Assembly (NCBI GenBank): GCA_008632985.1
Contig: QPGO01000049.1
Span: 248,001 to 312,000, forward strand
Direction: 5' to 3'
Source: Psammoneis japonica
Taxonomy: Eukaryota
DNA length: 64,000 bases
Part shown: one piece after another, positions 1,685-64,000 of the stretch
Position numbering within the stretch: position 1 is the first letter of the stretch
Layout of the letters: each line of letters begins with the position of its first letter
The notes under the pieces: generated by a model
The model's input: only the letters and a program-made list of their open reading frames with translations
What the model was told of the DNA's origin: nothing
Database searches by the model: none
Translations under genes and position numbers: made by a program

Positions 1685-2000
1685 GAGAGTAGAAAGTCAC
1701 CTCGACACACCAATGCAACCATGACAAAAAAGGGTCATCCAAGAACCAAGCATTTGAGTGCAAAGTTGCATCACTTTAGGAGGGATTGTGGTGGTGTCTC
1801 CCAGAGGTGAGGAAACATCAACCCCAAAACAAAAAACAAAAGAAAAACTTGAGACTTTCTCAAAAAGTCAATTTTTGAGTTTTGTGGCCCATGACAGAGT
1901 CCAGCTCTGCTGTTGTGCACAAATGAGCACAAATGACAACCTCATTTTTTAGCTTTTGTCAACTGCTTGGAGTGCAACAATCTTGAAAAATTTGGTGGGG
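1685..2000 (+). repeat. About 320-bp dispersed repeat, inverted partner at about 12810-13127
   Basis: agaaagtcacctcgacacaccaatgcaaccatgacaaaaa...caagaaccaagcatttgagtgcaaagttgcatca matches the reverse complement of 13035-13117; similarity continues through catgacagagtccagctct and tcttgaaaaa. Confidence 0.85.
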
Positions 2001-3214
2001 CAATGTGTTGTGGTGCTGTGCTGTGAAAAAAAAAGAAAAAACAAAGAGCGTTTGTTCCTGTTGTGTTGTTCTTTGTTGTGGCGTTGTTTGCAATGCTCAG
2101 CTTTGGTCATCTCATGCATGCAGTGCACAGTTGTTGGGCTGTGCAAGTGTGTGCTTGTGTGTGTGCATGTGCTGCAGGTGGACAAAATGTGCAGAGTGGC
2201 TTCTGCTGAGTGAACTGACACACACAGCAGGCTGGTGGATGATTCTCACACCAGAGTGCCAATCTGAGGCTCTCTGCAAGGAGGAACACAAAAATTGTTG
2301 TGTGCCACCAAGGCTTTTGCACATTGTTAAATTTTCTTGTGCATCAAATGTTGACACACACACACACACACATGACAAAGATTCAAAAATTCTGAGAGGA
2401 CACTCTGAAAAAAAGCATGGAGTCCATGTGCAGAAAATGCTTCTCTGTTTGATGGAACACGAGAACAGGGCAGTTGCAAAGCACTTCTCAAATTGTCCAG
2501 AACAACAACATTGATGGCTCACAACAACCCCCCTCATTGAAACAATGCTTTGTCAAATGCATCCAGGAGGCTGCCCTGCCAAGATGAAACAACATGCATT
2601 GAAGAGATGCTTGCAGCTGACATGTCCATTCTGGCTGCAGGATGGAAGGAGGTTGACCATGAAGAAGGAGCCCAACAATGTGGTCACTGCTTGTCATTGT
2701 TGCTGCCTCCTGTTGGCAGAGGTGAGCAATGGGGGTGCAGTGGTTGTGCGCATCAGTGTGGCAGAATGGATCCAATCTGGTGAGTCATTGTGATGTTGAC
2801 ACATGAATTTTCTTCACAAGCAAACTCTGCAGCCCCCCCCTTGGCCCACGATGAACAAAGCCTGCAATGAAGCAAAGAACAACCAACCTTCCCTTGCCTC
2901 ACAGTTTTGAAAGGAAGAGCTGTGGAGTTGGTGGGGCCAAGCTTCTGTGGGATTGTGCAGCTGTCACACCCTTCATGAAAAGAGCTGTTGGTGGCATGAT
3001 GGTGTGGCATGACAGAGGCCAAAGAAGTGTGAGGTGCATTGATGCCTTCATTTCAAAGCAAGAGTGTCAACTGTGCACACATTGCTGAGCACTTTTGTTG
3101 CTCTCTCATGGGTTGGTCCATCCATCACTCAATCCTTGCGTTCTCTCGTGGAACCGCATTGTCTGCTCTCTCTCTTTCCACTCTGGCAGACACTGGCAGA
3201 GGCCAAGGAGCTCT

Positions 3215-4330
3215 TGAGAGAAAGCAGTGTGGCCCCTCATCTTCCACCCAATTGGTGCTGTTTGGTGTCTCACCATTCAATCATCACAAATTTTCTAAAA
3301 CTCAAGCATCAAAATTGAGTGGAGCATGCTCGCATCGAGATGGGATGTGATCATTCAGCTTGTCAGGGTGCAGGAACCACCCGCTTTTTGCCAATTTCCC
3401 CAAGTTGCAAAGTTTGACATTGCAGAGGCCACCCTCTCCTTTGCTCCCACAACCAAATGTTGCCTGATTGTTGCCGGACGGACTTGGGTCCCAAACACCC
3501 AATCACATCATGACCCTGCCCCAAAGTCCCATCCTGCAAAATTCCTGCTCCACCATGTGGCCAATGACAGTGATGTGGTTCCAAATTCCAAATGGATTCA
3601 CCTGACATGAACAAAACCTTGTCATTCTTGTGAATGTGATTGACAGCTGGATGTCTTGATGGTTGGATCTGGAAGAGTCTCTGAATTTGTGGAGGTGTCG
3701 CAAAGGCCCAGAAGGGCCTGCCTTTGAAATGAGAATCATGGTGGAGAAGTGGATTGATGCAAAGTGTGGCACCACCACCCAAAGAATGACTGCTGACAAT
3801 CAATTCACAGCCTTGGTTCTTGTCCATGGCTTCAACGACAGATTCTCCTGCTCTGGCAAAGAGGTGCTCAGAAAGAATGGAGATGTGGTGTGCATGAGAT
3901 TCTCCTCCCAGAAAGGGTCACATTGCATTGGAGCAGGCAAACAACAAGACAGTGAGATGTTCACCCCAAAAAAGAAAAAAAAGCATGAAGAATGTCCTTG
4001 CAAGAATGGCCAGCTGCATCAATGGCAATTTCCGAGTGCATCATGGTCCCACAAATTGCTGGTGCAATTTTCTGATGGGTGCGGGCAACCATCAAGAAGC
4101 TTTGTTGCAAATGAGCAGGATCATCTGAGCAGTGTGCATCAAAGAGAACAATGTCTGACATGGGAACTCCCGTGTGCCCAGCAATGTTTGCTTGGGTCCA
4201 ATTTCCCACATGGAGACTCAAAATGCTGTCTCCGCAGCTTTTGTCTTGGTGGTGTCAATGTTGGCGCCCACAACAATGGCATCTCCACAGGCTGCCATGG
4301 CATGCTTGACTTTTTTTTGCTTCTTTCATG
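3215..4330 (-). pseudogene. Degenerate genomic copy of the class 3 lipase at 20381-21921
   Basis: Colinear with about 20240-21485, intron included. SHSLGGGATLCINPLLH versus GHSLGGGATLCINLLLH; SGWFLHPDKLNDH shared. Frameshifts, deletions and TA->CA/TG changes. Confidence 0.92.
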
Positions 4331-4334
4331 GAAA

Positions 4335-5480
4335 GCACTTGCCACAGTTGTGACAGGGGTCTGTCTCTGGGGTTTTCTTGGTGGTGCAACCACCAGAGAC
4401 GACTGCTGCTGGACATGAGAGCACTTGGCATTGGCTGGGTCAAGCACACCGGTTGGCCATCAGGGGCGGTCTGGACCATCAGGCCAAAACCTTTGGACAT
4501 GGATTTGGGGTCTGCTGCATGCGTGGCTGGATCTCAATGGTTGTTGCTCTCAAAGTTCTGGTCACGATCGGAGACGCAGGTTGGCGGCAGATCACAGGTG
4601 AGTCCAGCTCTGCGCATGGTGCGCTTGGCATCGTCCTTGCTTTTGAAAGCAATTTCAATCAGTGGCTCATCCAACTTCTCCCTCTTCTTGCAAAAAGGGT
4701 GGCAAAACTGATTTGCATTCTCTTCATCACCACCTGCAGCAAGAACAGCAGCAAGGTGCGCCAGCGTGTGCATGACTCTCAACTCTTTTTCCTTGGTCTC
4801 TTGATCCTCAGAGAGCTCAAACAGGTCCCGCACAGGGCACTTGGGCATGCTGAGCTGTTTGATCTCTTTCTTGAGCTTGTTTAGCTGCTCAATGGATGGA
4901 CTGCAAAGAGCAATGATGAAGGCCATCCAGACTTGGGGGGGCGAGTCGGAATCCTCGACCTTGAAGTCAAGCTTGCTGACCAGATCCGGGTCCAGCAAGG
5001 CTTTCAGGAAGGCAACGACATCCCTGTTGTTTGCATGATTGCAGGAATTGCACTCAGGAGGGCCATGGAGCACCAGCAGCACAGTGCCTGAGATGGTGGC
5101 ATGTGCTGGAGATCCGACGATCCAACAATCAACAACTGCTGGCGGGGCCAGACTCTCGCTGATGGAGCCAGTGTGGAGCACTCGGCAGAGCGGGCATGGA
5201 GCATGGTCTTGGGGGCATTCTGATGGCATCAGAGCCAGAGGTTTAGGCTGCAGCTTGGGCATCCCCAAACAGAAGCGCAGAATGTGTCAAGTTGCCCCAG
5301 CTGGCAAACTGACCAGTCAAAGCACTCCCATGTGCGCGCGCTTTTTTCGGCAGTCTTCCAGTGCATCACTTGGATGTCCACTCCAAGATGATGCCTCAGA
5401 CAGGATGGTGAGCAGTGACTCTGAACTGTCAAGTGGCAATGCAACATTTGGTCAAAAGCCTTTCACAGAAACACAGCTGA
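4335..5480 (-). mobile_element. Degenerate gag-like fragment of a diatom Ty1/copia element
   Basis: NNRDVVAFLKALLDPDL...DS...VWMAFIIALCSPSIEQLNKLKKEIKQL...CP resembles diatom copia gag from memory; TpA-depleted; no LTR identified. Confidence 0.45.
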
Positions 5481-5932
5481 CTAAATCATGAGCTGTCTAG
5501 ACCAAAATCTGGTGAGCGCGACTCTGGACAACTCACAGCGTGGGGATCCATGCTGTCTGGTGCACCGCAGGAGTGACCAAGTTCTCAACAATCAATCCTG
5601 CTCTTACAAGAACCGAATTAGGCCTTGTAACATTGTTCACAGCATGTGACTGTTGTTGAGCCACAAGCTCCAACATGATCCAACGTGGCGGGAAGATTCC
5701 ACGAGGACAGACAGACACAATTTGGATCGCTGGACAGACGATCCACGACTCGGCGCTTCATTCATACGCGGAAACTGTCACATTCTACTGTATGGGATCA
5801 TGCTCTCTATGAAAGCAAATCGAAACGAATGTCAGAATCGCGTGACATCAAAAGAGGAACCCTCTCAAAAAGTTTCACGTTCGAGATCTCTCACCTTACT
5901 TACCTGACAACAACGTTATCATCAGCTGTAGT

Positions 5933-8900
5933 ATGGAATTGTGTACAGGAATGGTAGGATTTTCCTCACAAGGCGTTCGGTTTGTCACCGTGGTAATTCT
6001 TTCACTTTTCTCTCAAGACGGCGTATCCGCCATGTACGATACGATCCACCCTAACTTTCCCTGTTACAAGAACATGCTCGGGACGAAGGAATACCTGGAC
6101 GATCTGGTGGAAAAGGCGTCTTTCAATGCGGATTTGCAGGTTTCGATTCAAGAATTTGGTACCACGGTCGAAGGACGTCCCATGGAAGTCTTCCAAATCA
6201 CCGGCAATGGCGCGAATGATAACGACAAGGGTATCTTGTATTTGGAATGTGCCATTCATGCTCGTGAATGGGCCACGTCCGAAATTTGTTCCCGCTGGGC
6301 CGGCCACTTGGTGGACAATTATGGCATTGACGCGGACATTACGGCCGTCTTGGATCACGCTGAGATCCATATTGTATCCTACGCCAACCCGGATGGACGA
6401 GCCATTTCCGAATCCGGCGATCCCTACGCCTTGTTCGAAGCTTGGCATCGTAAGAACGCTAATGAGGAATACGTCGAAGCCGAAGACTTGACGTGTACCG
6501 GAGAACAGGGTGCTACCTTTGGCGTGGATTGCAATCGCAATTTCCCCTTTTTGCATGCGTTGCCGACGGGTGCTCCTACCTCCTACAGCGGATCCGACGA
6601 TCCATGTGCATCGGTCTTCTATGGTCCTAGTGGTGCCTCCGAACCCGAAACCCAAGCCATTGTCGACTACGCCAGCAGCATTTTCCCCGAGTCCCAACGC
6701 AAAGATGACCCCGAAGACGAAGCAAGCTTTGATATCCCGTATACCGAAGCCACCACGAATGGTATTTATATTGATTTGCACGCCTATGGAAACGTGGTTG
6801 CCTGGTCGTGGGCCTTTGAAGGTACGGTCGACGGTACTACTCGCCTTTCGCCCAACGAGGAATCACTGCACGCTCTGGGACGCAAAATGCAAGTCATTAA
6901 CAATGAATTGCTCATGGCCGGTCCGCTGCAGACGGAATGTCGTGACGGCAATGAACTGACCGAACCCGACCTTCCCGATAGTATTGCGTGCTTGTATCCC
7001 GTGCCCGGTGGATCGTCCGAGTGGGGATATGGGGTGCTCGGAGCCGCGGGCTACACGCTTGAATTTGGGACAGCCTTCCACCAAAATTGCAATACCTTTG
7101 AGAATAACATTGTTGAAGGCGCTCTCGATGTCTTGACCTATGCCGCCAAGGTTTCACGTTATCCCTACGTGACACCTAAGGGGCCCGAAATCTCTAATGT
7201 CGATGCCGATGCCGTGGTCTTTACGTCCAGCAGTTTGACCATTTCTGCCACAGTCAGCGACAGCGACTCGATTATTTCCGAAGATTTTGCGCCTTTTCAA
7301 CAAAACATTCAACAAGTTTGTTTGTTTATTGATGGACATCCCTACGATGCCGATGCCCCATCCTGTAACCCCATGACACTTTCCAACGTTGGTACGACCG
7401 TAACGGCCTCCTTTTCGGAAACCGTGAACGATCTTGGGTTAAGCTCGGGAAGGCACACTGTGTTTCTACAAGGCCAAGACAGTGACGACGTTCTGGGTCC
7501 GGTCACAGCCATGTCCTTTCGCGTCTTTGATCTCCCGTCGGGACCCGTTGATATTTTTTTTCTCGTGGATACTTCGGGAAGTTTTACGGAGGATCTTCCC
7601 CTCTTCAAGGCCGAAGCGCCTGACCTCATCACGGGTATTTTGGAAGAGAATCCGCAGACCCAGTTTGGTGTGGGAACCTTCCAAGACTATCCCATTGGCC
7701 CGTATGGACTTCCAGGCGACGAAGCCTACGTGCTCTTGCAGACCATCACGGACAATATTGCTGCTGTCAATGGTGCTATTGATGACTTGTCCATCTCAGG
7801 TGAAGATTCCGGCGATGACTTCATGGAGAGCCAACTCACCGCCTTGTATCAAGCAGCGACTGGCGAAGGACAAAATGTCAACGACGGAGAATATATCATT
7901 CCCGAAGGACAGCATGCTGGCTTCCGCGAAGGGGCTACCAAATTGATTGTTCTCTGGACGGACGCAACGTTTCACCGCGCCGAGGATGACGACGACTACC
8001 CCGGATACGAAACGGACGATGTGCTCGCCGCCCTTTCCACGGGTGGCGTCGTTGTTGAAGATGCTCGCCTGCGACGTGGTCGTAGGTTGGACGTGGAACC
8101 TCCGATTTCTGTTATTGGTATTAGCCGAGGTGGCAACACCGACGTCATTAACGACCTGACACTACTTGCCAGTGGTAGTGGCGCAATCGCGGGTGTTGGT
8201 GGAGTTGATTGTGATGGGGACGGGATTAGTGACGTTGATCAAGGCCAGCCGATTGTTTGTCCTGGTGTGACTGGCTCGGGCGAAGCCATAGCCATGGCCA
8301 TCAATAACGCGTTGATTGCAGTGTTCGAAACGCTCGTTCCCGTCGAAGCCGTGTGCAAGTCCATTAGCGTAATGGCCACGTTCAATTGTGAAGCAACGAT
8401 TACCCCCACTCAGATCGACGATGGATCATTCGGTTTTAACATTTTGCTGTCCATCGACGAGGACACTCTTGGGGTAGGCGAGCATGACGTAACACTATCC
8501 GCAACCGACGGCAATGGAGATGTGGATAGCGCTACATGTACAGTAACCGTTTTGGACGAATACATTAGTCTTGACGAAGTTTCTTGTGGACTTCCTGGGG
8601 GCGGCGATTGGGATATTATTGAAAGTCCCGATAGTGTAACTGCGTCAGTCGTGAAAGCCAACGGATGCTCTGCGGAAATATCTGTCGTCCAGACTCCGCT
8701 TTGTGAGCGGTGCAATGACGAGGGTATGGTCGACTATCCTGAGTGTTTCAATGGTGTTTCTTTGGAGGGGAGTGATACTATTTCGGTATCAAATATAGCC
8801 GACGGAGCAGGAACTTTTATTCGTTGGAGAGTCACGGCCGTGGGAGATTCACGACCAGGCGATCAACTCGTGTTCTTTTGTGGTCGATGTGTTCAAGACG

Positions 8901-9562
8901 GTACATTCGAGTGTCCTTTGGAAAAGCCTTCTCGCGTTGATTTGGATTCTGATATTTCGTGGCCACAAAATTCAGTGACCGAGTCCGATGGCATTCCCCC
9001 GACAATTTCCTGCCCGGATGACATTGTAGTAGGCAATGATCCCGGTCAATGCGGTGCAATCGTGATGTATGACGTGCCTGAGGGAGAAGACAATTGGTGT
9101 GCTTTCACGGTGCTTTCTGGGGGGCTTGGATCGGGTGGATTCTTTGAAGTAGGAATGGTCCACGTAGAAACTTACACTGTGGAGGACGCTGCTGGATTGA
9201 CTGCTTCGTGCAACTTCACAATCACGGTGAATGATGTGGAGCCCCCAGTTGCGTCCTGTGTGCCAGGTCCGAATCCATCGGGAAATGTCCCTCAATCTAA
9301 CAATCAAGATGGCTTTTGGACTGTGAGTGCTACTGATAACTGTGAGGTCGTAACTTTTGACATTAAGGATTCAGGTAGCGAGGAGCTCTTCCCAGGTACC
9401 TTCGATTCGGAGGGCACGAACATCCAATACGTTGTGGCTAACAAATTCCGTCAGCGAAACGGTCAGGGAGCCGTCGACTACCGACTTACGGGCCTTGGTG
9501 TTGCTGAGGTGATTGCCGTTGACGAAGCGATGAATATGGGCACGGTGACTTGTGTGGCCTAG
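5933..9562 (+). CDS. Secreted M14 zinc carboxypeptidase with vWA and HYR/Ig-like domains, 1209 aa, no intron apparent (start may be 5951)
   Basis: Hydrophobic signal segment; IHAREW, NRNF, DLHAYG and YTLEFG M14 motifs; DIFFLVDTSGS MIDAS motif near 7550-7580; HYR-like PPTISCPDDI...SGGFFEVG...TYTVEDAAGLTASCNFTITVND near 8995-9240. Confidence 0.9.
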   Translation: MELCTGMVGFSSQGVRFVTVVILSLFSQDGVSAMYDTIHPNFPCYKNMLGTKEYLDDLVEKASFNADLQVSIQEFGTTVEGRPMEVFQITGNGANDNDKGILYLECAIHAREWATSEICSRWAGHLVDNYGIDADITAVLDHAEIHIVSYANPDGRAISESGDPYALFEAWHRKNANEEYVEAEDLTCTGEQGATFGVDCNRNFPFLHALPTGAPTSYSGSDDPCASVFYGPSGASEPETQAIVDYASSIFPESQRKDDPEDEASFDIPYTEATTNGIYIDLHAYGNVVAWSWAFEGTVDGTTRLSPNEESLHALGRKMQVINNELLMAGPLQTECRDGNELTEPDLPDSIACLYPVPGGSSEWGYGVLGAAGYTLEFGTAFHQNCNTFENNIVEGALDVLTYAAKVSRYPYVTPKGPEISNVDADAVVFTSSSLTISATVSDSDSIISEDFAPFQQNIQQVCLFIDGHPYDADAPSCNPMTLSNVGTTVTASFSETVNDLGLSSGRHTVFLQGQDSDDVLGPVTAMSFRVFDLPSGPVDIFFLVDTSGSFTEDLPLFKAEAPDLITGILEENPQTQFGVGTFQDYPIGPYGLPGDEAYVLLQTITDNIAAVNGAIDDLSISGEDSGDDFMESQLTALYQAATGEGQNVNDGEYIIPEGQHAGFREGATKLIVLWTDATFHRAEDDDDYPGYETDDVLAALSTGGVVVEDARLRRGRRLDVEPPISVIGISRGGNTDVINDLTLLASGSGAIAGVGGVDCDGDGISDVDQGQPIVCPGVTGSGEAIAMAINNALIAVFETLVPVEAVCKSISVMATFNCEATITPTQIDDGSFGFNILLSIDEDTLGVGEHDVTLSATDGNGDVDSATCTVTVLDEYISLDEVSCGLPGGGDWDIIESPDSVTASVVKANGCSAEISVVQTPLCERCNDEGMVDYPECFNGVSLEGSDTISVSNIADGAGTFIRWRVTAVGDSRPGDQLVFFCGRCVQDGTFECPLEKPSRVDLDSDISWPQNSVTESDGIPPTISCPDDIVVGNDPGQCGAIVMYDVPEGEDNWCAFTVLSGGLGSGGFFEVGMVHVETYTVEDAAGLTASCNFTITVNDVEPPVASCVPGPNPSGNVPQSNNQDGFWTVSATDNCEVVTFDIKDSGSEELFPGTFDSEGTNIQYVVANKFRQRNGQGAVDYRLTGLGVAEVIAVDEAMNMGTVTCVA

Positions 9563-9849
9563 AGAGTGGCCTCGGGGGCGCTCTCGGGCTGAAAAAAGTC
9601 GTTCGTGTCTTCCCATACCCCACACGAAATTGCATATTCCTGCTTGTATGGACGCGTCAGGCTCTGTATGTTGCATCTAACATGCATGATAACACGGCAG
9701 CACGTTGAGTCTAGTTTGGAGAATCATTGGAAAAATCTACGATGGCGACTACTGCACGATACACCATTGCACGAATAACACAAAATAATCTGATTGTTTA
9801 TTCAGTTGAGCAGGGTTGCCCTATGAACAATGCAGCTGAATGCAAACAC

Positions 9850-12300
9850 ACATTCGACTTGGGGTCTTTGTGCTTGAGCTTCAGGTCACACACGTTCTTC
9901 TTTCTCTTTCACCTGTGGTGTGTTCATGTGGCTTTTTCAATTGTCCAAAAATTTTCCTCCCAATCACATCCATGTCAATGGACAATGCTGTGTGCTGGCA
10001 GCACAAATGTGAGGACCAGATTGGATCATTGTTGTGAAGTGACTTTTCAAAGACAAGGGACCATTTGAGGTGAATTCCTGATTCAATCATGGTGGTCATT
10101 TTGCAGAATGTTTGCTGCAATTGAGCAGAATGGCACAAATTCTAGGGCCCATGCTGTTTGACTCTGCTAAGACAAAACAGTCTGTTTTTGTGGCAGTGCT
10201 TTTGCTTTGACAGTGCAATCTGCCAACATCTGCACTGCATTGTGTGAACAAAAATTGTTGAATGCATTGACAAGGATCATGTTCTGCTGCGTGCAGCATT
10301 CTCAATTCTGATGTATGACAAGCAGCATCAACAATGGAGTGCAACTTGTTCGATGTCAAAAAACCAGTTGCAACCGTTGAGCTGCCTGGGGAAACACAGT
10401 CTTAATCTAAATGAAACCAACACACAGTTCACATCTGCAGTTGTTGTTCCTCCATTCTTGCCACCATGCTTTGCAAACAAACAATGAAAACTGCAAACCA
10501 GCCAATTGGAGTGCCTTTGACAGCAAATCCATGTGACATTTTTCTCCATTTGGAAATCCAAATTCAACCTGTTTGTTGTGTTGCAAAGCTGCACTGTTGA
10601 ACATGCATTTTGCTGGCAGAGTCTCCATCAAGACAAATTCTCACAATGCAAGCAGGGGTCTCTCAACATTGAACAACAGTTTTCATGAATTTGCAACATG
10701 TTTTTGTGCCATCCATTCAACAACAGTTTGCGCGGCATTTCCAATTTGATTGGCAAAAAAATTGCAGCAAGGGCAAAATTCCAAGAAACATCTTTGAATT
10801 GATTGAGAACCAAGAGAGGTCAATTGATTTCTCCCATGATCACGCATTTGTTTGCAGTGCTCCTGAACACATCGCAGACAACAACTCCAATCATCTTGCC
10901 AAATTGACAATGGCGTGGCTCTGTCCACTGCTGCTCTTGCAACTGACAACATTGTGGAATCTTTGTTGCTTGCCAGTGCCACCAAAACTGACCAACATGT
11001 TTTCATGACACATGCCCAGGTGACAAGCACTGATGTCCTTTGCTTTCTCAACTCCATTGTGGCATGGCAAGAAGCAGCATCAATTGTGATTTCAAACTTG
11101 CTTGTTTGAGAACCTGAACAAAAATTGCTGCTGCTCAACTTCTGCAGAACATGTCATCCATCCAAACGAACACAATGCACAAATGCCAGTTGTCATTTCT
11201 GTGCTGCCCCATTCAAACCATGCCCCACAACAAACCAGCAGCCATCACAGATGTTTGTTGGCTGGCCTGGAAGGCAGCAATCTCAATTCCCGAAGAAGAA
11301 ACAGCAGTCTTCATGTGATGCATGGGACTGCCATGATTAAAAATGGGCCTGTTGAGTCATGATGAGACACAGCAACACTGTGACACACAGAAGCTGATCC
11401 ATGCCACATGCATGGGCCATAGAAACAATCAAAGCTGCTTGCAAATTTCCAAAAACTCATTGGCAAATGCCTTTGGTGGGCCCACAAAAATGTTGCAAAA
11501 TCAGATGATTTTCTTCTGCTCCTGTTGAATCCAGCTCCTGGTCATCAAATGAGGAAAGCATGATGACAATGTGTTCGCAGCAATCAAGAGGCAGAGGGGC
11601 CACACCTGTTGATGTTGCAGCATTGCTTGCACACCATGTGCTGGTCAAACCTCCCAGCCACCACAGTTGCGCCAAACCAGAAGAGAAAAGCATCCAGCAA
11701 AACTTGTCCTCAAGGAGCAACTGAGGGTTTTGTGCCTCCACATCAGGCCCTTTCAGCCATGGTCAATTTTTGTCCATGGCTCAGCAGCTTCACAGTCTTG
11801 GTTTTGATCAAATGCCAGTTGCTGTGATCCAAGTGACCAAACACAAGGTTGTGGGGAGTTTTTTCAATGTTTGCTTTGGAAAACACTTTTTTTGCTGCAC
11901 CAGGTGCAAGTCTTCTTCTTGCCATGATGTTGTGAAAAAAATTCTCAGCATGCTGCTGTTGTGAAGGGCCATTTTTTTGAAGCTCCACAAACACCTGGAA
12001 GATGCCGTGATTGTGCACGAAATGTGCCAGGACAGACGTTTCAATTTGTCACATGTGTTCAGATTTGCAACTCATTTGTTGATGAAATGACATTTGCCAG
12101 CTAAACTCATTTCGATCGCCAACCCCACTCATTTTGATCGCCAACAATTGGCGACACTTTTGAGCAGCATTTGAGCACTTTTGAGCACTCGTGAGCATGC
12201 TTGAGCAATTTGAGCACATCACATTTGAGCACGTCCATTTGAGCACACAATCCAAAAAGTGATCAACTCATGTGAGCCAAGCAGCATGAAAAGTGAGTCA
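9850..12300. mobile_element. Heavily degenerate unclassified repeat or transposon remnant
   Basis: TpA- and CpG-depleted, only broken frames, ends in an array of short repeats typical of transposon subtermini. Family not recognised. Confidence 0.35.
12106..12247 (+). repeat. Short-repeat array: 2x actcatttYgatcgccaac then 8x TGAGCA
   Basis: TGAGCA at 12161, 12172, 12182, 12192, 12202, 12211, 12226 and 12240. Confidence 0.85.
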
Positions 12301-12767: not shown

Positions 12768-12812
12768 CCCCCCCCCCCCCCCCACACCCACACACACACA
12801 CACACACACACA
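12768..12812. repeat. Poly-C followed by (CA)n microsatellite
   Basis: Read directly. Confidence 0.85.
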
Positions 12813-20219: not shown

Positions 20220-20380
20220 AACTGTAGAGGGTAGCGAGAGCAGTTTGCCCCCTGTCAAGATCACAAAGACCAAAATCCACCCTCATAGGGACGCCGAGAC
20301 AAGATTGATGAGTCGTCGTCTCCCGCCTAATTGGTACCGTTTGGTGTCTCACTATACAGTTATCAAAAATTTTCTAAAAC

Positions 20381-45870: not shown

Positions 45871-45871
45871 G

Positions 45872-54100: not shown

Positions 54101-57100
54101 ACGACCCCTGACTTGTCCTTGGTTGACGACGTCAATGATGCATGTCAATGTGCAGCATTTTTTATCAACGTCCAACAAGGTCCATCTGATCCCTTGCTGA
54201 TGGATGCTGAGCTGTTTTCGGTGCAGTGTGACTCGGCTCCGTTGTCCACCCTGCTCCTGTCTGCTCTCTCAAGGTTGAGACTGAACGTCTTCTGTGGCAT
54301 CAACGCCTTGGACACCCCAGTGATCGCCACTTGTGCAATGCTCACAAGTGCATCAAGGGTGTCCCCAAGTTCCGTCATGCTGGTCCCGTCCTTGACATGT
54401 GCCCTGCGTGCATCCAAGCCAAGCAAGTCAAGACTCCTGCTGGACCGAACACGACTTGGAAGGCGACCCAACCATGCCAAGGTCTCACTGTCGATTTTGC
54501 TTTTGCTGGCCAGACTTCCAAGAATGAAGCCCGCAAGGTTGATCATCTTGGACACAATGGTGAAACATGTTGGATCACTGTCTGTGATCATCACACGCGG
54601 ATGCTCCATGGTGTAGCGAGGGTTTCAAAGGCCAGTCCTCTCAAGTGGCTTCGCCGATTCTTGGATCGACATTCACTGAATTGTCGTGACAAACATGCAC
54701 TTGTGGACCACAGTGGGGAATCATACAAAACCCCAAAGTTCGTGACCTCTTTGAACGAGAATTCCAGTGTGACATCTGTCCTTCTGGCGCTGGCGCATCC
54801 AACCAATGTGGGCCTGTTGAATGCTCACATTTGACTGTTGAGAACGCGATTCATGCGATTTTAATTGGCGCCAACCTCCCGATCCGATTCTGGCCCTGTG
54901 CATTTTATCACTGCCTCCGTGTCAAGAATGCCACTCCTGCAAAAGATCAAGATGCGGCACCTGTCACTCTTGCTGCCAGAAAGGTCAAAGATTTTACTGC
55001 TCTGAAGACTTTCGGATGTCGAGTGTGGTCCAAACGGTCCACTGCTCGTTCTGCTGCCTTCCGGGCCAATTCCAAGAAGGGTGTCTTCCTTGGTTACCTT
55101 CCCAACACCCTCAAGAATGTCATGTGGTGGGATCCTGAGACTGATGAAGTCAAGACAGCCAAGCATGTGCGCTACGATGAAGGTGTGAATGACCCACTTT
55201 TGGATCAACTTCCTCCCAATGCTGTCCATTTGCAGCATGTGGAAAATGGTCAGCCTTTTCCAGCTGAAACACAGGACACCACCATTCCCATGTTTGCGTC
55301 TTCGTTGAATCCGTTTGCTGCGACCATTGCATGCACCATGAAACGTCCTCCAAAGGACCCTGCTTGTGGTTTTGGATTTTCTCAGTGTGCGCTAATGGAC
55401 CGTGTCCATGTGTCGGAAATCAAGCAGCGCAGTCCTGCGGCTTCATTGTTTTCTTCCCTCCGTGCTGCTCGCAACAAGATTGTGGGTGCATGTGTTGTCT
55501 CTGTCAACAAGCGTGAAGTCTTTACTCCTTCGGATGCTGAAGAGGCCTCATATCAGGTCTTTCATGATAAAATTCCGACTTTCGAGATTGCTTTTGCACC
55601 GGAACGACGATTGGATTCTCGCACTCTTAACAAGGCATTTGAGGAAGCGGAGTTGTTTGAGCCGGACACTGTGGAGGACGACTCTCATGTTCCTGAACTT
55701 GCTTTGGAGGATGTGCGATCTGTTGTGGCTCTTCTCTGTCCCGATGATGATTTTTTGGATGAGGCCATTCCTGCAGATGCATTTTATGCACATCTCAATG
55801 CGATTAGCTCTCGCTCACTCACTCCGGAGGAAGCTGCTCTTGACCGTCTCACCCGTGCCAAGCTTCGTAAACTTGACACATGGCCTGAATGGGAAGAAGG
55901 CGAGCAGCGTCAACTGGACCAATTTCATGCCCTGGGTGTGTGTGGTCCTCCACAACCATGTCCCCCTGGCGCGAATGTCATGCGTCCGCATTGGGATTGC
56001 ATGGCAAAGCCGGATGGCCAACGTCGCTCCCGACAATGTGGTGATGGTTCCAAGTCGGCAATGCCGGCCTTGCATGAGTTGACTTCCACCTGTTCGTTGT
56101 GTGTGGAACGTTCCATCAAAAAGATGTTTTTCGCTCTCAGTGCGGCCATGTCGCATCTTGTCTTTGGCGGTGATGCACGGGATGCCTGCACTCATTCTCC
56201 TGGCCCATCCCAACTGGTTTTTGTTGCTGTTGATGATGCACATGCCGCCTGGTGTGAAAAACGATTTGGCAAGAAAGCACCCCGCCACTGTGTTCTCCCG
56301 CTCAAGTGTGCTCTTCAAGGCCATCCTGAAGCTGGTGTCCTCTGGGAGAAGCACATCAATTCGATTCTCATGGGTGCGAAACTTCTTTTCCGTAACACTG
56401 CTCATGATGAGTGCATCTGTTCCGGTGAATGTGATGGTGTCAAGGTCCTCCTCCTTCGTCAGGTCAATGATTTTGCTCTTGCTTGTCCATCTGAAAAGAT
56501 TGCAAAAGAGATCTACGACCACATTGGCAGGGCTCTCCAGATGGAGAATGAGGGTGCTCCTCCCTTCAAGCATTTGGGCTTGGTTGCTGAATTCAATGGC
56601 ATTGATGTCATTCAAAATGACGACTCAATCACTGTCAACGTTGCCAGCTACCTTGACCGTGTTTTCAAGACCCATGGTTGGGACACTCCCGCTGCACATG
56701 AGTCTGATTCTGATTTCAAGGCCACACCTGTTCCGGTTGATTGTGTTCCTGATCTGCACACTGCTGAAGGTCCTGAAGAGGGCACACCCGAGTGTGACAC
56801 TCTTGCTGAGTCCCAAGGATTCTCGCATCGTTCTGTCTTGGGTGAACTGGTCTTTGCCCACTCCTGTTGTCGTTTGGATGTTGGATGTCCTGTTGTCACC
56901 TTGTCCAAGTTTTCCAAGGCACCGGCTGAGCTCCACCATGATTCACTCAAGCGTGTGGCCAAGTGTTTGCGCCGTGCCAAACATTGGGGACTGACCTGCA
57001 AGAAGTCTAAACGCGATCCCGGCCTGCCTCCTCACGATTTTGAATGGCTTGAGGATGACCCATCTCTCCCGGATTTTCCTCGTGCTGTTGACCTTTTCCA

Positions 57101-57568
57101 ACTTCTTGGATTCATTGATGTGGCACATGGCAATGAACTGTGGCGTCGCCGTTCTGCTGCTGGCTGTGCGCATGTCCTTGCTGGTGCTGCGATTGACTGT
57201 CGATGCCGCACGCAAACGATCACCGCTGCTGGTTCCACAGAAGCTGAGTTCCTTGCGGCTGTAACTGCTGCAAAACAGACCCTGCACCTCGCATGGTTCT
57301 GGAAGAATTGGGTTTTCCCCAATGTGGCCCCACTCCCTTGCACATTGACGACTCCTCTGCCATCCAGATGATCAACAACAAGGTGCCTACGGAGCAATCT
57401 CGTCATGTTGACACTCAACATTTTGCTGTCCAAGACTGGCGTGACGTGGGCAAGATTGTCACTCAACATGTCCCGGGTGTCATTGACCCTGCTGATGCAC
57501 TGACCAAGGCCGTGGGTTGGATGCTCCACGCCCGCCATGCCCGCCGCTTGTTGGGACACTGCCGTTGA
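51196..57568 (+). pseudogene. gag-pol of the copia element, broken by frameshifts and stops
   Basis: CVVCGNDHLFHEC knuckle; QIDAGA protease; LWHQRLGHP; QGLTVDF integrase; ALQGHPEAG and RQVNDF RT; STEAEFLAA and PADALTK RNase H. Confidence 0.93.
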
Positions 57569-57709
57569 TTGTTGTCGGGTTTGTTGTGGATTGAGTCTTG
57601 GGTGTGTCTCTGTTTTATTTGTTTTGTTCTTTGCCATTCTGGTCCTCTCTTTTCACTCGGATCGTCTCTTTCTTTCTTGTTGAGCATTGCATTGCTCATC
57701 AGGGGAGGG

Positions 57710-57878
57710 TGTCAGACATCCGAGATGGGGAGCACACTCCCTTGTGTCGGACAGACTAGCACAGACAGCATGGAGAGATCCGATGATCTCTCCTTTGCTC
57801 ACTTTCTTTCTCATCTAGTGCACGATTGTCATCTGTCCCAGATGTCCGTTAGATTGTCCCGATGCCACCAGTCTGTAA
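57710..57878 (+). repeat. 3' LTR
   Basis: Follows the polypurine tract and is followed by the target-site duplication. Confidence 0.95.
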
Positions 57879-58007
57879 GCAAGGAGCTCAACAAAGCAAG
57901 AGCAGTTGGGGCATTGCCTCTGACAAGCTGAGCAGGAAGCAGCACAGCACCAAAGAGATCCAACAGTTCAAGGAGAGCAAGCTGTGGAAGAATCATCATG
58001 CTCCTGA

Positions 58008-59655
58008 ACAAAGAAGGGCATCACAACAACTGGCTCCTCAATGACACCTGCCATTGGCAGGCACAGGTCATGGTCCCCACAACATGCTTGCAAAGTGCCA
58101 TGCCAACAGGCGCTGCAGCCCTGCTTGGCTTTGTTGATGTTGTGCCCAAGAGACCCTGCATTTCAACCATGTCAACACTCACAGCATGGATTGTCATGCC
58201 AGTGCAAATGGAGGACACAGCATTGTCAGTTTTGCAGTGAAACCTCCAAGTGTCCAGCACTGTTTTGCAGAAGGAAAGTTTGATTTGGGCAGCATCTCCT
58301 TGGACAGCCTTGCCAAGCACAAGAGTGCAACTCCTGTCTGCAGCTTTGGTGGTTGTGTTTTTTAAAATGGTGGGTCTTTTGAGTCTGGCAAAGGCCAGCC
58401 AGGGCCAATTGTCATTTTCTGCTGGATGCATTTATCCTGTCAGGCTTTCTGAATGTGAGTGCATCACAGTGCAGTTGAGCAGAACTTTCATGAAAGAGGA
58501 GTGGTGTCTGCCTTGCATCTGTCAATGTGGGGCTTGCCTTTCATCACCTTTGCCTTCTTTCCAGCAAAGCAGCCAATCCAGCAAAGCAGCCAACAGGAAT
58601 CATTGTGGCTCTCAGAGCCATTGCATGGAAATTGTGTGGAACTGCAGCACCAAGAACAATTGTCATCAACCTGTCCATCCATCTGCACCTGAATGTCAAC
58701 TTCTTGGGAAATCAATTGAAACGTTGTCTGATCAAAGGCGTTGCTCTTTGCCATGTAAATCAAGGTGCCTTTGATCAAATGGCATTTCAACTGAGTTCCC
58801 ACAAAGTCATTAGCTCTGATCACTCTCTCATGTGACACTGTGTGCTTTTCCACATGATTTTGCATTTTCTCTTGTGTGAAATGTTGGTTGTGGCTGATGT
58901 GACATTTTTGAATGATTTCTGTTGCAAGTTCTTTTCTGGATGGCATCATCAACAGGTGCTGTTCTGCTGACTGCCCTGCCATTTTTGGCTGTGCTGCTCT
59001 TGCTGGTTTCTGTAGACTTGACCCACTTGGGTGGCTTTGTTGGATGCAAATGGCAATTGTTGGCAATGTGTTAAACCAAAACAAGCTGTCTAGAACAAGC
59101 AAACAGTCTCGGTTGTGCATTGTGGTTGTCTTGCTGCCATTCAATGTTGTGCCTTGCTTTGGCTGTTGCAATGATGTCTTGTCAAGCACAGCTGCTGCTG
59201 GTCTTCCTGTTGTGGTGGGGTCTTTGTGCTCCTGATTGGAGGTGCCTTCACCTTTGGGTGCATGTGTGTCAAGTTGTTTTTCATCCTGACAGATGTCTGG
59301 ATGGGACAGCATTGCTCAGTGTTTGGATTTCTGTTTTTTTTTTGTTGTCTGCATTTTGACATCATTGACTTGTGCTGGAGTGTCAATCCTTTTCAACTGC
59401 ACTTGCCACTGAGTGTGCAGATGAGCACTGCAATTGGTGGTGGCAGTTTTTTGACACTGGTGCAGCATCAATCTGGCTCTGGAGGTGATGAGTTTTCTGA
59501 CTCCTGTCTTTTGTGCTTTGGATCTGTGGCATGGGGTTTGTTCTTGGAGTTGTCTTTTTGGCAAAATTGTCCCATCTGCTGGCATCTGGTCAAGATCAAA
59601 CTGGGGTTGTGAAATGTGTCAAAATGGAGGATGGCCCAGAAATGCAAGGGTTGTC
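58008..59655 (+). pseudogene. Degenerate copy of the TM9SF middle and 3' end
   Basis: 58008-58319 aligns with about 36705-37007, 58320-58571 with 37411-37668, then an insertion 58572-58923, then 58924-59655 with 37666-38505 (MLLIGGAFTFGCMCVKLFF versus MLLIGGAFTFGCIYVELFF). Confidence 0.93.
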
Positions 59656-60516
59656 ATTGTCTCAATTTTGCATCATTTCAAATTGAAAAATGGCTGCCAG
59701 CAATTGCAACATTGTTGGAACCCACAGTGGTGGACATGAGTGCGTTTTGTGCCAAAGTTGTTGCAAGCACTCCTCTGCATTGTGCTTCTACATTGTGCAC
59801 AAGTGATCCATGGGATGGGATGGCAGTGCCAACTTGGGGTCATTCTGCAATCAAAGGTTGCCTGGCCTCATTCAATGAAAAGCCATGATGTTTTTTTTTC
59901 TCCAAGCTTCTGCTTCCCAGCCTGCAGTGACTCACACCACTTTGACCACACCATGTTGTCCAGGTCCCAGCCAGTGTCAGGCAGACACTTTTTGTGGCAA
60001 ATGCTTGCCAGCAGCCCCCACGTGTGTTTCTGCTCACCTTCTCGTGCTGATGTGCCCTTCTCAGACGGCACTGTGCTGGGTCTCCCAAGACCATTCTGCC
60101 CATTTCAACCAATGGCACACCCTTGTTTCAGCATGTTGAGCAATGTTTCTAAGTAGAAAATGACTGGTGTTGACTTCTTGTGCATGGCTCACATGCTCGT
60201 TGATCTTTTTTGACTCAAGAAATTTCCCACATGGACTCCAGTGCAAATTCCACACACGTCAGCAACAACCACCCAACAAATGCTGTGTCGACACTGTCAA
60301 CACTCTGAAGTGCTCACACCCATGCCCACTGGTTCTCAATGACCTTCTTTGTCTCCATCGGCCAATCAAGTGCTCCACTCTACTTGGCGAAAGCATCTCC
60401 TCTGTTGTGGCACTGATGAGCATTGATGTGAGTCTTCCTTTGGCACCAAGCAATGATCATCCTTTTGTTGCACATGTTGGCATTTCTGCACAAGATCTGG
60501 CATGATTTCTACACAA

Positions 60517-61214
60517 GACAAATGTTTTTTCCCATGACTGACACGGTTCATCTTCATGGCTTCTTGTTTCATGCCTGCAAGCCCTGTGCTGCCCAGCTTC
60601 TGCATGCTGGCTAATCAAGCTTGCCACTTTGAGTGGCGGTCTTGCTGTTCTTGCCATGGTTCCTCAAGGTGTGCAAATGAGACACCTCATGATGCCAGTT
60701 GGCATCTTTCAATCAAGCAAATTCCAGGGTCCCTTTTTGCTTCCTTTGTGGCTCCTGTTGAATTTTTCTCCAAATGCAACTGTCCTCTGTGGTTGTGGTG
60801 TAACTGACATGTGCATCACCAGCAAGACTGCAGTGAACTCCAAGTGTTGTTCTCTCTGGGTTTCACATGAGACAAATGTTTTTTCCAATGACCCAACAAG
60901 GTCCATCTTCACTGCTTCTTGTTTCACACCTGCAAGTCCTGTGCCACCTCACTTCTGTCTTCTGGCCAACCAAGCTCACCACTTTGAGTGGTGATCTCAC
61001 TGTTCTTGCTGTGGTTCCTCAAGGTGTGCAAATGAGATGCCTCATGATGCCAGTTGGTGCCTGTTGCTCTCAAGCAAATTCCAGGGTCCCTTTTGCTTCC
61101 TTTGTGGCTCCTGTTGATTTTTTTTTCAAATGCAACTGTCCTCTGCAGTTGTGGTGCAACCAACGTGTGCATCACCAGCAAGACTGCAGCAAACTCCAAG
61201 TGTTGCTCTCTCTG
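60517..61214 (+). repeat. Tandem duplication, period about 354 bp
   Basis: 60517-60858 aligns with 60871-61214. Confidence 0.9.
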
Positions 61215-61396
61215 TTTCAACCATTTCCATTGGGCATTGCCTCTGGGAGATGCCACACTTCAGGTTGATTGCATGAGCTTCTGCCGCACTCCTTGATCAG
61301 TGTGCTGGAACTGTGGGTCAGCCAGCACCAGTGTTGCTGGGCAAAGGTGCAACAGCACTTTAAATCATGTTTGTTTGTTTTTTGTCTGTGCACAGG

Positions 61397-61599: not shown

Positions 61600-62990
61600 G
61601 GACAAAACAAAGGAGTGTTTTAGCTGGAGAGCACAGTGAGGGCTCTTTTCCAAGCATTTGTCAAGTAAAATTTGCTGATTGCGCAGCTGGTTTGCCCCAT
61701 TTAGTTGACAGGCAAGCTGGGGCAATCTCTCCAGTGCTTTGAATTGCAGCACTGCTTTGCAAACTTCCTTTGCCTGGTGTTTTTTTTCTCCTTGGCAGGC
61801 TCAGACTTCAACAGCAGAGGCACACTGGTGTCACTTGTGGCGCTGACCCACCAGGTGGCTGTCTGGCTGCTCCCCACCCCCAGCCAGAAATCCATCAAAA
61901 GACTGCAAGGGCAGTGGTCTTGTTGTCCCATCAGAACAAAAAAAGGACTCCAGAGCTGGAATGTGCAGTGGCAGTGCATCAATGACAAAACACCATCTCT
62001 CTCAAGACTGCTTTCAATGCAACCTTCCTCTTTCCACAAACCAACAAACATCGCAGGTGGGAGTGAGCACATGCAATGGGATGGACAGCTGGATGGATCT
62101 GGCACAACAACCTGATTTTGGCAAATTGAGAATCCCAACATCTGGGTTGCTTTGGGTGGGTTGGACAGCCACCACCTCCTGGTTGCTTGAGGCATCACAT
62201 GTTGCACACACAAAGCTGGGTGTTGTCATGCCACATGATGTGGCACTTTGAAGTTGCACCCCATGCAATGCTCAGAACAACAAAGAAGTGCATCTCATGC
62301 CATGGAACTTGATTGTTTGTACATCAATGGCCACAAAGTTGATCAAGATGAGAGTTTTGTCATCACACCACAACAAGACAGTGGAAGATTTTGATGGTTG
62401 TGCTGGATTTCTTGGCACTGTTGACTGTCATGCCACATTCAGACACGCCAACAAACAGTGTGTTTGCTGACTTCCACAGGGCTCTCACAACTGCTGCGTG
62501 AACAAGTCCAAAATCACTGGGTTTGTTTCTGCTGTGCAGCAGATGCAATCATCATCAGCATCTGAGGAGTGCACGTGCACCGGCATGAACAGAGTCATTT
62601 TTTTCTTCCAGCTTCCCATGGCAGATGCACAAAATGATGTTTTGATTTCCGGTGTCAACAATGCATCTTGCACGATGTGGCAAGAGGAGCACTTGAATGT
62701 TTTTTTTCTGAAGAGAGTGGAGGAGCGCCAACTTGTGTGTCAAATGCAGCTGTTGGATGCTGTGAACAATTGTCGGCACCCACGACTCTCTCACATCGAA
62801 TGGCAGTTGTGTCCACAGATGACGCCATGCATGGATGAGATCAGCTGCACTTGCTTCTCTCATGCCCCCATCTCCCCTTGTTTGGGAAGTTTTTGCTTCC
62901 TCATCAAAGAGGCAGTCTCAGCCACAACACCTGCCTTGTTCTTTTCCACCCTGCGGTGTCAGCGCAGCTTGGCTGTGTGATGTGGCACAT
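61600..62990 (-). mobile_element. Possible degenerate LINE 3' fragment
   Basis: AADLIHAWRHLWTQLPFDVRESWV resembles the RNase H region of diatom LINEs; otherwise eroded. Confidence 0.35.
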
Positions 62991-63037
62991 GATGTGCTTT
63001 GTCACGGGACAGTGCATGAAACCCAACAGTGCAACAA

Positions 63038-63290
63038 GGCCTGTTCCAGCTCCAGGTGCTCCTCGAAGGTTCGATTCCCATCTTTTGTGCATTTGGCGCA
63101 ATTGACTTTTTCCAAATCCGTTTTTTGCCAAATCGAGGGGCAAGTGCACTCTTTGCATGTGTTTTCGGGTGCACACTCACCTCTTGATTTTTGAAACGAT
63201 CAAAATTGAAGGAGTCAATTGAAGCCAAACTGCGCAGAAAATCGGCCTCTCTCGCGATGAAAAGCGGATCACCTGGAGCTGGAACAGGCC
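63038..63290. mobile_element. 253-bp MITE-like element
   Basis: Perfect 21-bp terminal inverted repeats GGCCTGTTCCAGCTCCAGGTG (63038-63058) and its reverse complement (63270-63290); no clear target-site duplication. Confidence 0.7.
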
Positions 63291-64000
63291 ACAAGTGGGA
63301 GCTTCAAACCACCGGCGATTGGATCTGGAATCAGCTCGTTGAGCTCATTCCAAATCCATGCTCAAATGGATCGGAGTGCGCTCTCTCTGGCCTCCGCTGG
63401 CCAGTGGCTGCTCTCTGCTGCTGGCTGCCAGCTGGCTGGCAGCAGCGGCAGCACAGCCAGCGGCTGTCCTTCCTTGAGTCTGTGCGTCGTCCACACAGGA
63501 ACTAATTTTGCCCCCAGCGGACACTCTGGGTTGAGGATGGATCGTCCAGATGATGTCTGTTTGCGCATGAGCTTGCATTTTTTTGAAAAAACCTGGATTT
63601 CTCACGCTGGATGCGCGTGCTCGCCAACAAAACATTTTCAGCGATGGGCCGAACTTTGTCCCTTTGAAAGACATCACAGAAGGTGTTGGTGATGGTTGTG
63701 ACCATGCGCGATCTTTAGCTTGACGACTGTGGGTGTGTCCACAGACAGTCAAACGCCAGTTGTCGGCATTTCCTGGAAAGTCGTGGCTTGTCTCCCATGA
63801 GCAGTGCGATTTTGGCGAAAAATGGCGGTTTGTCGAATTTGACAACTGCACCGAATCCGACAATTGGCATTTGAAGGTTGAAATGTGCAGCTCGCATGCA
63901 GGCCCAACAGCCCTGATGGGGGCTGGACACACTCACAAGTGTTTGGGGGTGCTCAGAGGCATCGCAAAATGACACGGGCGAAGTGCAGGGAAATTGCAAA

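Follow-up and report, generated by a model that had tools for sequence, protein, structure and literature searches.

A signature of in-place TpA to TpG/CpA hypermutation in repeat DNA of the diatom Psammoneis japonica

Hypermutation directed at the dinucleotide TpA has been described in the chlorarachniophyte alga Bigelowiella natans, in which it converts TpA to TpG or CpA in the integrated DNA of nucleocytoplasmic large DNA viruses (NCLDV) and virophages (Mettrop et al., 2026, bioRxiv 10.64898/2026.01.13.699255). According to this preprint, mutation-accumulation lines sequenced by Illumina displayed 302 de novo single-nucleotide mutations, 231 of which were located in two integrated viral regions; almost all mutations of these regions were A>G or T>C, all of the GC-biased ones occurred at TpA, and the rate reached about 1e-7 to 1e-6 per site per generation (10.64898/2026.01.13.699255). 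The preprint also reports 124 TpA-poor and CpA+TpG-rich clusters, as well as low-TpA coding sequences enriched for reverse transcriptase, endonuclease-reverse transcriptase, DDE and zinc-finger domains, and it proposes on bioinformatic grounds an ADAT2-like adenine deaminase as the candidate agent, while its main text makes no mention of CpG, trinucleotides, flanking context or diatoms (10.64898/2026.01.13.699255). Here, we analyzed a stretch of 64,000 nt (positions 248,001-312,000 of contig QPGO01000049.1, hereafter the window) from the diatom Psammoneis japonica, in which repeats, transposable elements (TEs) and gene fragments probably undergo a real, in-place and site-specific TpA to TpG/CpA hypermutation. 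All composition results given below were obtained within this window and from one sample.

As in B. natans, the change observed in P. japonica is A:T>G:C at TpA on either strand, it is found in foreign or mobile DNA only and it leaves TpA-poor and CpA+TpG-rich clusters; the Copia, RVT_1 and zf-MYND frames of the window likewise recall the low-TpA coding sequences (reverse transcriptase, DDE and zinc finger) of B. natans. In contrast, the host is a member of Stramenopila and not of Rhizaria, and the signature is saturated, with a TA observed/expected ratio (o/e) of 0.06 over 36 kb of the 64-kb window, when compared to a Rho of 0.45 in an NCLDV region of B. natans. Moreover, the affected sequences are long terminal repeat (LTR) and RVT_1 retroelements, tandem duplicates and host-gene fragments, and TA loss is coupled to CpG decay and prefers TAY over TAR (Y, pyrimidine; R, purine), unlike in the B. 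natans account. Note that the process was shown by de novo mutations in B. natans, whereas in P. japonica it is known from the accumulated signature of the sequence alone. A preliminary description of the window had called the process undescribed: it is in fact already described in one alga, but it is new for diatoms as far as the literature searched shows, since we found there neither a report of TpA hypermutation in diatoms nor one of a dinucleotide mutation of diatom TEs resembling the repeat-induced point mutation (RIP) of fungi.

RIP makes stop codons and mutates both copies of a duplication. Its changes are C>T and create TpA (PMC7296669; 10.64898/2026.01.13.699255). Like RIP of Neurospora and other fungi, the process found here is a dinucleotide-specific transition mutator that degrades TEs and duplicates in place within sharply bounded blocks; unlike RIP, it changes A to G, destroys TpA, makes no stop codons and leaves the parent copies intact. 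Thus, it is not RIP, though RIP-like in outcome. The deaminases TadA and ADAT2-ADAT3 act on A34 after the invariant U33, i.e., in a 'UA' context that bacterial TadA reads as U-A-C, and for these enzymes and the TadA-derived base editors this context parallels TAC, the commonest winner in our data. To our knowledge, no targeting to repeats is known for TadA or ADAT2-ADAT3, and the presence of ADAT2/3 alone would prove nothing, because they are universal housekeeping enzymes. Enzymes of the ADAR and APOBEC types also oppose mobile elements through deaminase-type hypermutation, and the order of the 5' bases of A>G in our data, T(U) > A > C > G, resembles that of ADAR; however, these enzymes act on RNA or single-stranded cDNA before integration and in strand-biased clusters, whereas the changes found here are post-integration, on both strands and without runs. 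In addition, the 3' preference is G in ADAR and Y here. A preference of ADAR for an upstream U is mentioned in the B. natans preprint (10.64898/2026.01.13.699255). In diatoms, DNA methylation is mainly CpG, with TEs as main targets, and unmethylated, gene-rich stretches separate methylated repeat regions that reach 30 kb, as stated in the reports cited (PMC9998398, PMC5124317).

Blocks were delimited by a 300-bp sliding segmentation of dinucleotide composition. While TA (n = 968) has an o/e of 0.24 over the entire window (CG 0.58, TG 1.49 and CA 1.51), the segmentation highlighted depleted segments at 1701-5600, 9801-13900, 24401-26100, 30201-31300, 31701-32600, 39201-42800 and 43201-64000, and two milder ones (15501-19200 and 22401-23600) beyond the list of the preliminary description. 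Strong blocks, genes and unique DNA compare as follows.

Strong blocks, 36.1 kb: TA o/e 0.06 (135 observed vs 1,198-1,583 expected), CG 0.32, TG 1.75, CA 1.74.
Seven intact genes, 14.3 kb: TA o/e 0.51, CG 1.00, TG 1.22, CA 1.12.
Unique non-coding DNA between intact genes, 4.9 kb: TA o/e 0.67, CG 1.08, TG 1.20, CA 1.16.

The near-vanishing of TA and the dominance of TG/CA in blocks of transposons and duplicates, as claimed in the preliminary description, are therefore recovered by segmentation, together with the claimed restriction to such blocks: unique non-coding DNA keeps a TA o/e of 0.67 and shows no equal loss, so that TA depletion is targeted and not a trait of neutral DNA. The longest run without any TA extends over 1,586 bp (3296-4882), for which the chance is ~1e-26 at the baseline TA frequency of 0.037 per bp, and the block edges are step-like over about 50-100 bp, near intact genes. 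Compared to the baseline, the blocks lack 1,201 TA and 1,459 CG, i.e., 2,660 sites, and carry a TG+CA surplus of 2,563 (within 4%), with an equal GC content in blocks (0.487) and genes (0.491). Methyl-CpG decay resembles the pattern observed, since it also turns CG into TG/CA in repeat blocks beside genes with a weak flank dependence, but it covers only the CG part of this balance (1,459 of the 2,660 lost sites) and cannot remove the 1,201 TA. Stop triplets are rare in the blocks when compared to the baseline (TAA, 1.5 vs 6.5 per kb; TAG, 1.1 vs 7.3), and 126 block open reading frames (ORFs) of at least 110 codons were found, four of which matched Pfam (zf-MYND, gag-pre-integrase, SH3_retrovirus+RVT_2 and an EMP70 remnant). 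The blocks, none of which has an assigned strand, are listed below.

1701-5600: old TA/CG-erased repeat block, TA o/e 0.03, CG 0.23; contains the decayed paralog 3237-4340 of the intact 20316-21491; its left edge (~1691) is the start of homology to an inverted copy at 12789-13116.
9801-13900: old TA/CG-erased repeat block, TA o/e 0.04, CG 0.21; inverted relative of the 1.7-3.1 kb block.
24401-26100: TA-erased block, TA o/e 0.05, CG 0.43; holds the decayed paralog 25676-26005 of 21864-22182.
30201-32600: TA-erased block, split by a young unit at 31282-31738.
39201-64000 (39201-42800 and 43201-64000): large TA-erased domain, TA o/e 0.05-0.07; continues past the window end.

The direction of change was obtained through self-comparison of the window, in which an intact gene copy served as ancestor proxy for each of four decayed block segments.

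3237-4340: decayed paralog, matching the intact 20316-21491.
58010-59480, forward strand: decayed EMP70 pseudogene, matching the intact EMP70 region 36708-38242; an EMP70 Pfam remnant lies in ORF 59175-59609.
45856-46297, forward strand: decayed paralog, matching the intact GCD14/EMP70 junction 36012-36454.
25676-26005: decayed paralog, matching the intact 21864-22182.
36358-38508, forward strand: intact EMP70 gene, ancestor proxy and control, with normal TA and CG.
20316-21927, reverse strand: intact ORF pair, ancestor proxy for the block segment 3237-4340.

Among 104 ancestral TA sites, 49 are now TG and 40 CA, 11 have become other dinucleotides and 4 were kept, and a similar account holds for the 130 ancestral CG sites (52 now CA, 51 TG, 15 other and 12 kept), while the remaining dinucleotides were kept at 52-84% in this comparison. 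With strands folded, A>G per adenine reaches 0.44 at TpA (91/208) vs 0.093 at ApA, 0.057 at CpA and 0.037 at GpA, i.e., a specificity for TpA that is 5-12 fold above other adenines, even at saturation; C>T per cytosine is 0.415 at CpG (108/260) vs 0.05-0.08 in other contexts. The outcomes at ancestral TA are symmetric between strands (49 TG vs 40 CA), and strand-coordinated runs were not found, as adjacent outcomes are alike in 86 of 185 cases (permutation mean 92.7) and in 48 of 82 for TA only (p = 0.10). The sites thus behave independently, though runs could be hidden by saturation. The aligned segments contain 10 block TAs, of which 4 are ancestral. In the parent genes (EMP70, the ORFs at 20.3-21.9 kb and the GCD14/EMP70 junction), TA and CG are at normal levels and the frames are intact, and the block copies differ from them by many ordinary substitutions and indels besides the TA and CG changes. 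These results confirm a further claim of the preliminary description, namely that TA turned into TG or CA at the sites with an inferable ancestor (89 of 104, with 4 kept), and support another, that a targeted A:T>G:C change acts at TpA on either strand; the TpA preference of A>G, which it had set against plain GC-biased conversion, is strong. In contrast, the minor role that it gave to CpG has to be corrected, since CG is heavily depleted in the same blocks and 103 of the 130 ancestral CG are now TG or CA. Therefore, the blocks carry two conversions.

These two conversions differ in their flanking context, as seen when the TAs surviving in strong blocks (n = 135) were compared to those of normal DNA (n = 747). 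By 3' neighbor, the survivor ratios are 2.04 for TAA, 1.58 for TAG, 0.67 for TAC and 0.25 for TAT, and at the tetranucleotide level they range from 4.3 (CTAA), 3.6 (TTAA), 2.9 (CTAG) and 1.6 (GTAA) down to 0.09 (ATAT) and 0.08 (ATAC), with a chi-square p of 4e-23. In the polarised paralog data, TAC is the commonest winner (33/49) and TAA the rarest (9/29). In effect, the process targets, and erases first, the sites that read TAY on one strand or both, and CTAA, TTAA and CTAG persist; consequently, Tyr codons turn into Cys more often than into His. Surviving CpGs display a weak flank bias only (ratios 0.84-1.30). Since TA has an extended context and CG nearly none, and since their kinetics differ (the zf-MYND ORF described below has a TA o/e of 0.11 but a CG o/e of 0.78), two processes probably operate in one domain, presumably an enzyme-like TpA mutator atop ordinary methyl-CpG decay.

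The elements and repeat pairs that provide a time scale for these processes are the following.

50824-50994, forward strand: Copia-type 5' LTR, 95.3% identical to the 3' LTR.
57709-57879, forward strand: Copia-type 3' LTR, pair of 50824-50994.
54232-57368, forward strand: Copia gag-pre-integrase / SH3 / RVT_2 frames, Tyr 0.8%, Cys 4.4%.
13838-20172, reverse strand: high-copy, partly affected RVT_1 retroelement with ORFs 13838-17668 and 17989-20172, TA o/e 0.30, CG 0.76.
22515-23618, forward strand: zf-MYND ORF of 368 codons, TA o/e 0.11, CG 0.78, i.e., TA loss without CpG loss; flanks TA-normal.
60506-61219, forward strand: tandem duplication of 355-bp period inside a block; the copies differ by 10 TG/CA doublets, i.e., 20 of the 49 mismatch positions.
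31282-31738: young unit; its 116-bp direct repeats, 97.4% identical, enclose a 225-bp island in which TA and CG are normal.

A retrotransposon integrates with two identical LTRs. The Copia pair now displays 8 differences over 171 bp, made of two TG/CA doublets, three TA-vs-TG/CA changes and one CG-vs-TG change, with zero elsewhere; because all of them fall on TA, CG, TG or CA, the changes arose in the chromosome after integration and independently in each LTR, at a rate far above background. The TAs common to both LTRs lie in CTAG and TTAG. The coding frames carry the same footprint: at 12 columns where four relatives agree on Tyr, the Copia element has Cys (TGY) in 6, His (CAY) in 2, Trp in 1, Ile in 1 and Tyr in 2, so that Tyr is conserved in 2 of 12 columns while other residues are conserved at 41-100%, except Met (0 of 3 columns). 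Likewise, the RVT_1 copy contains 1.0% Tyr vs a family median of 2.4%, and at seven Tyr columns (15 relatives) it shows Cys in 4, His in 1, Arg in 1 and Tyr in 1, with other residues conserved at 33-100%.

The RVT_1 element was also compared with two contig sets, X1 (657,387 contigs, 140.7 Mb, with a 31-mer depth of 63-66 and breaks at repeats, covering blocks and genes equally) and X2. Its depth in X1 is 570-5,100 vs ~65 for single-copy DNA, which suggests roughly 10-80 copies. Between-copy variants were classified from 40 of the 110 differences, where 31 X1 differences in 14.4-19.2 kb were merged into 24 events and 3 differences in the 2-kb block as well as 6 from X2 were excluded; on this basis, 23 of the 24 events are interconversions of TA, CG, TG and CA, and 7 of these are TG/CA doublets. 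The element apparently remains open, with a 1,276-aa ORF whose YIDD is intact and a 727-aa upstream ORF, both rich in Ser, Pro and Leu. Either it was caught early in hypermutation, or it belongs to a persisting family with little TA left. Tyr falls below 1.2% in 7 of 150 relatives; at the six family-wide Tyr columns, at least half Cys/His is seen in 3 of 73 scored sequences, which are the window copy, P0175 and P0250. The latter two are environmental proteins from JGI/IMG, with less than 1% Tyr, about 3.5-3.8% Cys and, in 3 of the 4 columns where the family conserves Tyr, Cys/His instead; their footprint, shared with the window copy, may give a weak hint of the same process in other samples or species, too weak to be claimed. 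A scan of metagenome contigs with a single protein gave two loci with short matches and a normal TA (o/e of 0.68 and 0.71), and is uninformative on distribution. As for the zf-MYND ORF, it may be a host gene that the process is targeting, or it may belong to a mobile element.

Taken as an age series, the repeats range from the young unit, in which TA is barely touched (its 116-bp repeats show three differences, two of them TA vs TG/CA), through RVT_1 (TA/CG o/e of 0.30/0.76) and Copia (0.11/0.59) to the old blocks (0.03-0.05/0.15-0.32). The TA/CG ratio of -ln(retained) is 2.1 for RVT_1, 2.9 for Copia and 6.1 for the zf-MYND ORF, so that TA loss outpaces CG loss by a factor of about 2-6 in the younger elements, and the ratio drops to 1.2-2.0 in the oldest blocks as TA hits a floor. 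Within the young unit, the island 31398-31622 shows a GGTTCGAA-like T-arm motif, for which ARAGORN found no transfer RNA (tRNA) and Rfam gave no match at E <= 1; the unit may be a small recent insertion or the remnant of a tRNA-derived short interspersed element.

Altogether, the conversion is a post-integration, strand-symmetric and context-dependent A:T>G:C change at TpA that is limited to repeats and duplicates, where CpG decay occurs as well; it acts independently per site and copy and stops within about 100 bp of neighboring genes. CpG loss probably results from the ordinary deamination of 5-methylcytosine in repeats that are presumably methylated. The TpA step is presumably enzymatic and of the kind seen in B. 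natans; its most likely chemistry is the deamination of adenine to hypoxanthine in DNA, to which we give close to an even chance. A context-specific deaminase would be recruited to silenced or foreign DNA and would convert the adenine of TpA, preferentially of TAY, to hypoxanthine, which would pair with C and thus fix A>G. Each site would be hit once, since a changed site is no longer TpA. Since TA>TG/CA removes TAA and TAG and cannot generate a stop, it is through missense changes (Tyr to Cys/His, among others) that elements are inactivated, and spurious long ORFs accumulate in the blocks; the effect of the process would be genome defence. The intact state of the parents may mean either that the process spares a diverged paralog located elsewhere, or that selection purged the lineages with attacked parents. 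Note that scans of the window genes (12 ORFs and the 126 block ORFs) revealed no deaminase.

As the main alternative, the chemistry could start at the opposite base of the pair. Oxidised thymines mispair with G, and if the T of TpA in silenced DNA were oxidised or otherwise modified (5-hydroxymethyluracil, 5-formyluracil or a base-J-like derivative, through a TET/JBP-type enzyme), T>C mutation would be the by-product of an epigenetic mark. The outcomes in double-stranded DNA are then the same as those of adenine deamination, given that TAY reads as RTA on the complementary strand, and sequence cannot separate the two. Moreover, TA is palindromic like CG and would permit a maintained symmetric mark, and the co-location with domains of CpG decay fits a chromatin mark. 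We nevertheless consider this origin rather unlikely, as no literature was found linking 5-hydroxymethyluracil, dinoflagellates and TpA, and the sole study of the process favors an ADAT2-like adenine deaminase on bioinformatic grounds (bioRxiv 10.64898/2026.01.13.699255).

Adenine deamination might in turn be one activity of a dual-specificity deaminase acting on C before G and on A after T, which would erase both palindromic dinucleotides. Indeed, the TA and CG conversions occupy the same blocks and lead to the same end products, and the B. natans preprint refers to ADAT2 enzymes with a reported DNA-editing activity on both A and C (10.64898/2026.01.13.699255). However, the different kinetics of the two conversions (TA 2-6 times faster in young elements, with zf-MYND as the extreme case) and their flank ratios (0.08-4.3 for TA vs 0.84-1.30 for CG) make a single enzyme improbable; in addition, the decay of methyl-CpG in methylated diatom TEs already covers the CG part (PMC9998398, PMC5124317), and the hypermutable regions of B. 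natans are described as almost exclusively AT>GC (10.64898/2026.01.13.699255).

Three other readings were rejected. The first, also considered in the preliminary description, is a base-calling or assembly artefact in which modified TA and CG are misread as TG/CA. The window indeed resembles a long-read assembly, given that it crosses a repeat of ~80 copies and shows small indels relative to X1, and a strand-dependent miscall would likewise yield TG and CA at ~1:1. The 1-2-bp indels between window and X1 lie at 2258, 2270, 5302, 11972, 12555 and 12714, which shows that the window sequence does not derive directly from X1. The differences from X1 in the region 2130-12714 resemble those of an incompletely polished long-read assembly. 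For their part, the depth and contig pattern of X1 would fit accurate short reads at about 80x, the platform of which is not on record. The X1 contig over 1744-5607 differs from the window by 3 substitutions and 3 small indels, with no substitution that restores TA or CG, and the contig over 5724-12187 shows 0 substitutions. As far as the available reads show, and with the caveat that X1 comes from the same sample, the TA-free sequence is thus reproduced, which argues against an artefact. Since the block copies also carry many other substitutions and indels vs their parents, and since Illumina reads gave the same spectrum in B. natans (10.64898/2026.01.13.699255), miscalling is largely refuted and very improbable. 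X2 contigs do not cover 2002-5336 and 10006-13340, and this was not counted as evidence of silencing.

The second rejected reading is the editing of retroelement RNA or cDNA by an ADAR- or APOBEC-like enzyme before insertion. It could call on the ADAR-like order of 5' bases (T > A > C > G) and on the many retroelements among the targets, but it is contradicted by the LTR pair that differs only at YpR sites, by the tandem duplicates and gene-fragment paralogs that are affected as well, and by the equality of both strands without strand runs, and thus has hardly any chance of being right. Nor is it credible that no targeted mutator exists, i.e., that GC-biased gene conversion, biased repair of T:G mismatches, selection against TA or foreign composition produced the pattern: repeats are often compositionally unusual, and in bacteria biased T:G repair can turn TA into CA/TG and very-short-patch repair is thought to deplete CTAG, but here CTAG is among the best survivors and not the most depleted, the TpA specificity is 5-12 fold with a block GC not raised over genes, host-gene paralogs acquire the pattern, LTR divergence is 8/8 at YpR, and it would be implausible for selection to act on over 1,000 sites of junk DNA.

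Some observations weigh against a TpA-directed mutator as the explanation of these blocks. The surviving TAs might partly be newly created rather than refractory, and the ranking of the 3' base differs slightly between the two approaches, with TAC as the best target in the polarised data and TAT as the most depleted among survivors. The specificity is not absolute, since A>G at ApA is somewhat raised (0.093), and the lack of strand-coordinated runs is unlike processive single-strand deaminases, though saturation could hide such runs. Given the intact parents of the mutated paralogs, duplication alone may not be the trigger. Finally, the independence of X1 is partial, as it derives from the same sample as the assembly and was possibly used for its polishing, and the claim rests on one 64-kb window and one sample.

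Besides these blocks, the window contains intact genes. For two conserved proteins, EMP70 (39-51% identity) and GCD14 (46-63%), the best named matches are all from diatoms, in a database without an identical protein or close relative. One intact gene serves as a control located between two erased blocks.

5933-9562, forward strand: intact peptidase M14/VWA/HYR gene, collinear with a 3,922-nt X2 contig.

The blocks on both sides of this gene share 71-77% identity between 1691-3060 and 12789-13895, mostly in inverted orientation, so that a single old repeat, present in two copies, flanks the gene. X2 resembles a transcriptome, with contigs that jump from 113 to 205 and from 951 to 1182 with CT..AC ends, whereas one collinear contig spans 5825-9746. 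At 1-1383 (reverse strand), a gene with a Rad21/Rec8 N-terminal domain is interrupted at 114-204 and 952-1181 by introns with GT..AG ends on the minus strand, and a spliced X2 contig supports both of them. The 3.9-kb peptidase transcript is collinear, which indicates an intron-poor genome. In addition, a gene for an AAA_16 / STAND-type NTPase of 1,090 aa (26316-29588, forward strand) lies between two TA-erased blocks, and nothing ties it to hypermutation.

Our findings have several consequences for the reading of such genomes. Repeat annotation fails in such DNA, where four of 126 block ORFs are recognisable, and gene callers will report false long ORFs because TAA and TAG vanish. Dating by LTR divergence would overestimate ages, given that all 8 LTR differences are due to hypermutation, and local mutation rates vary by large factors inside one genome. 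Compared to the B. natans precedent, the window adds a second and ecologically major lineage, a saturated long-term signature, direct evidence of an in-place action after integration, the TAY-over-TAR rule and the separation from CpG decay. The latter two provide handles for finding the enzyme, and for base editing, a natural enzyme that edits adenines of DNA under a TpA rule would be of interest. At its furthest, and with a small chance of being right, one may speculate that diatoms, and perhaps stramenopiles, alveolates and rhizarians generally, possess an active chromatin- or RNA-guided defence in which one dual A/C deaminase module turns both TA and CG of invading or duplicated DNA into TG/CA, as a functional counterpart of RIP that works through missense, and thereby a natural TpA-specific DNA adenine editor. 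If the process is genome-wide, then the mutational defence of one chlorarachniophyte preprint would also run, and to saturation, in diatoms, which are major ocean phytoplankton; if true, this would point to a eukaryotic strategy, either old or recurrent, that differs from both RIP and methyl-CpG decay.

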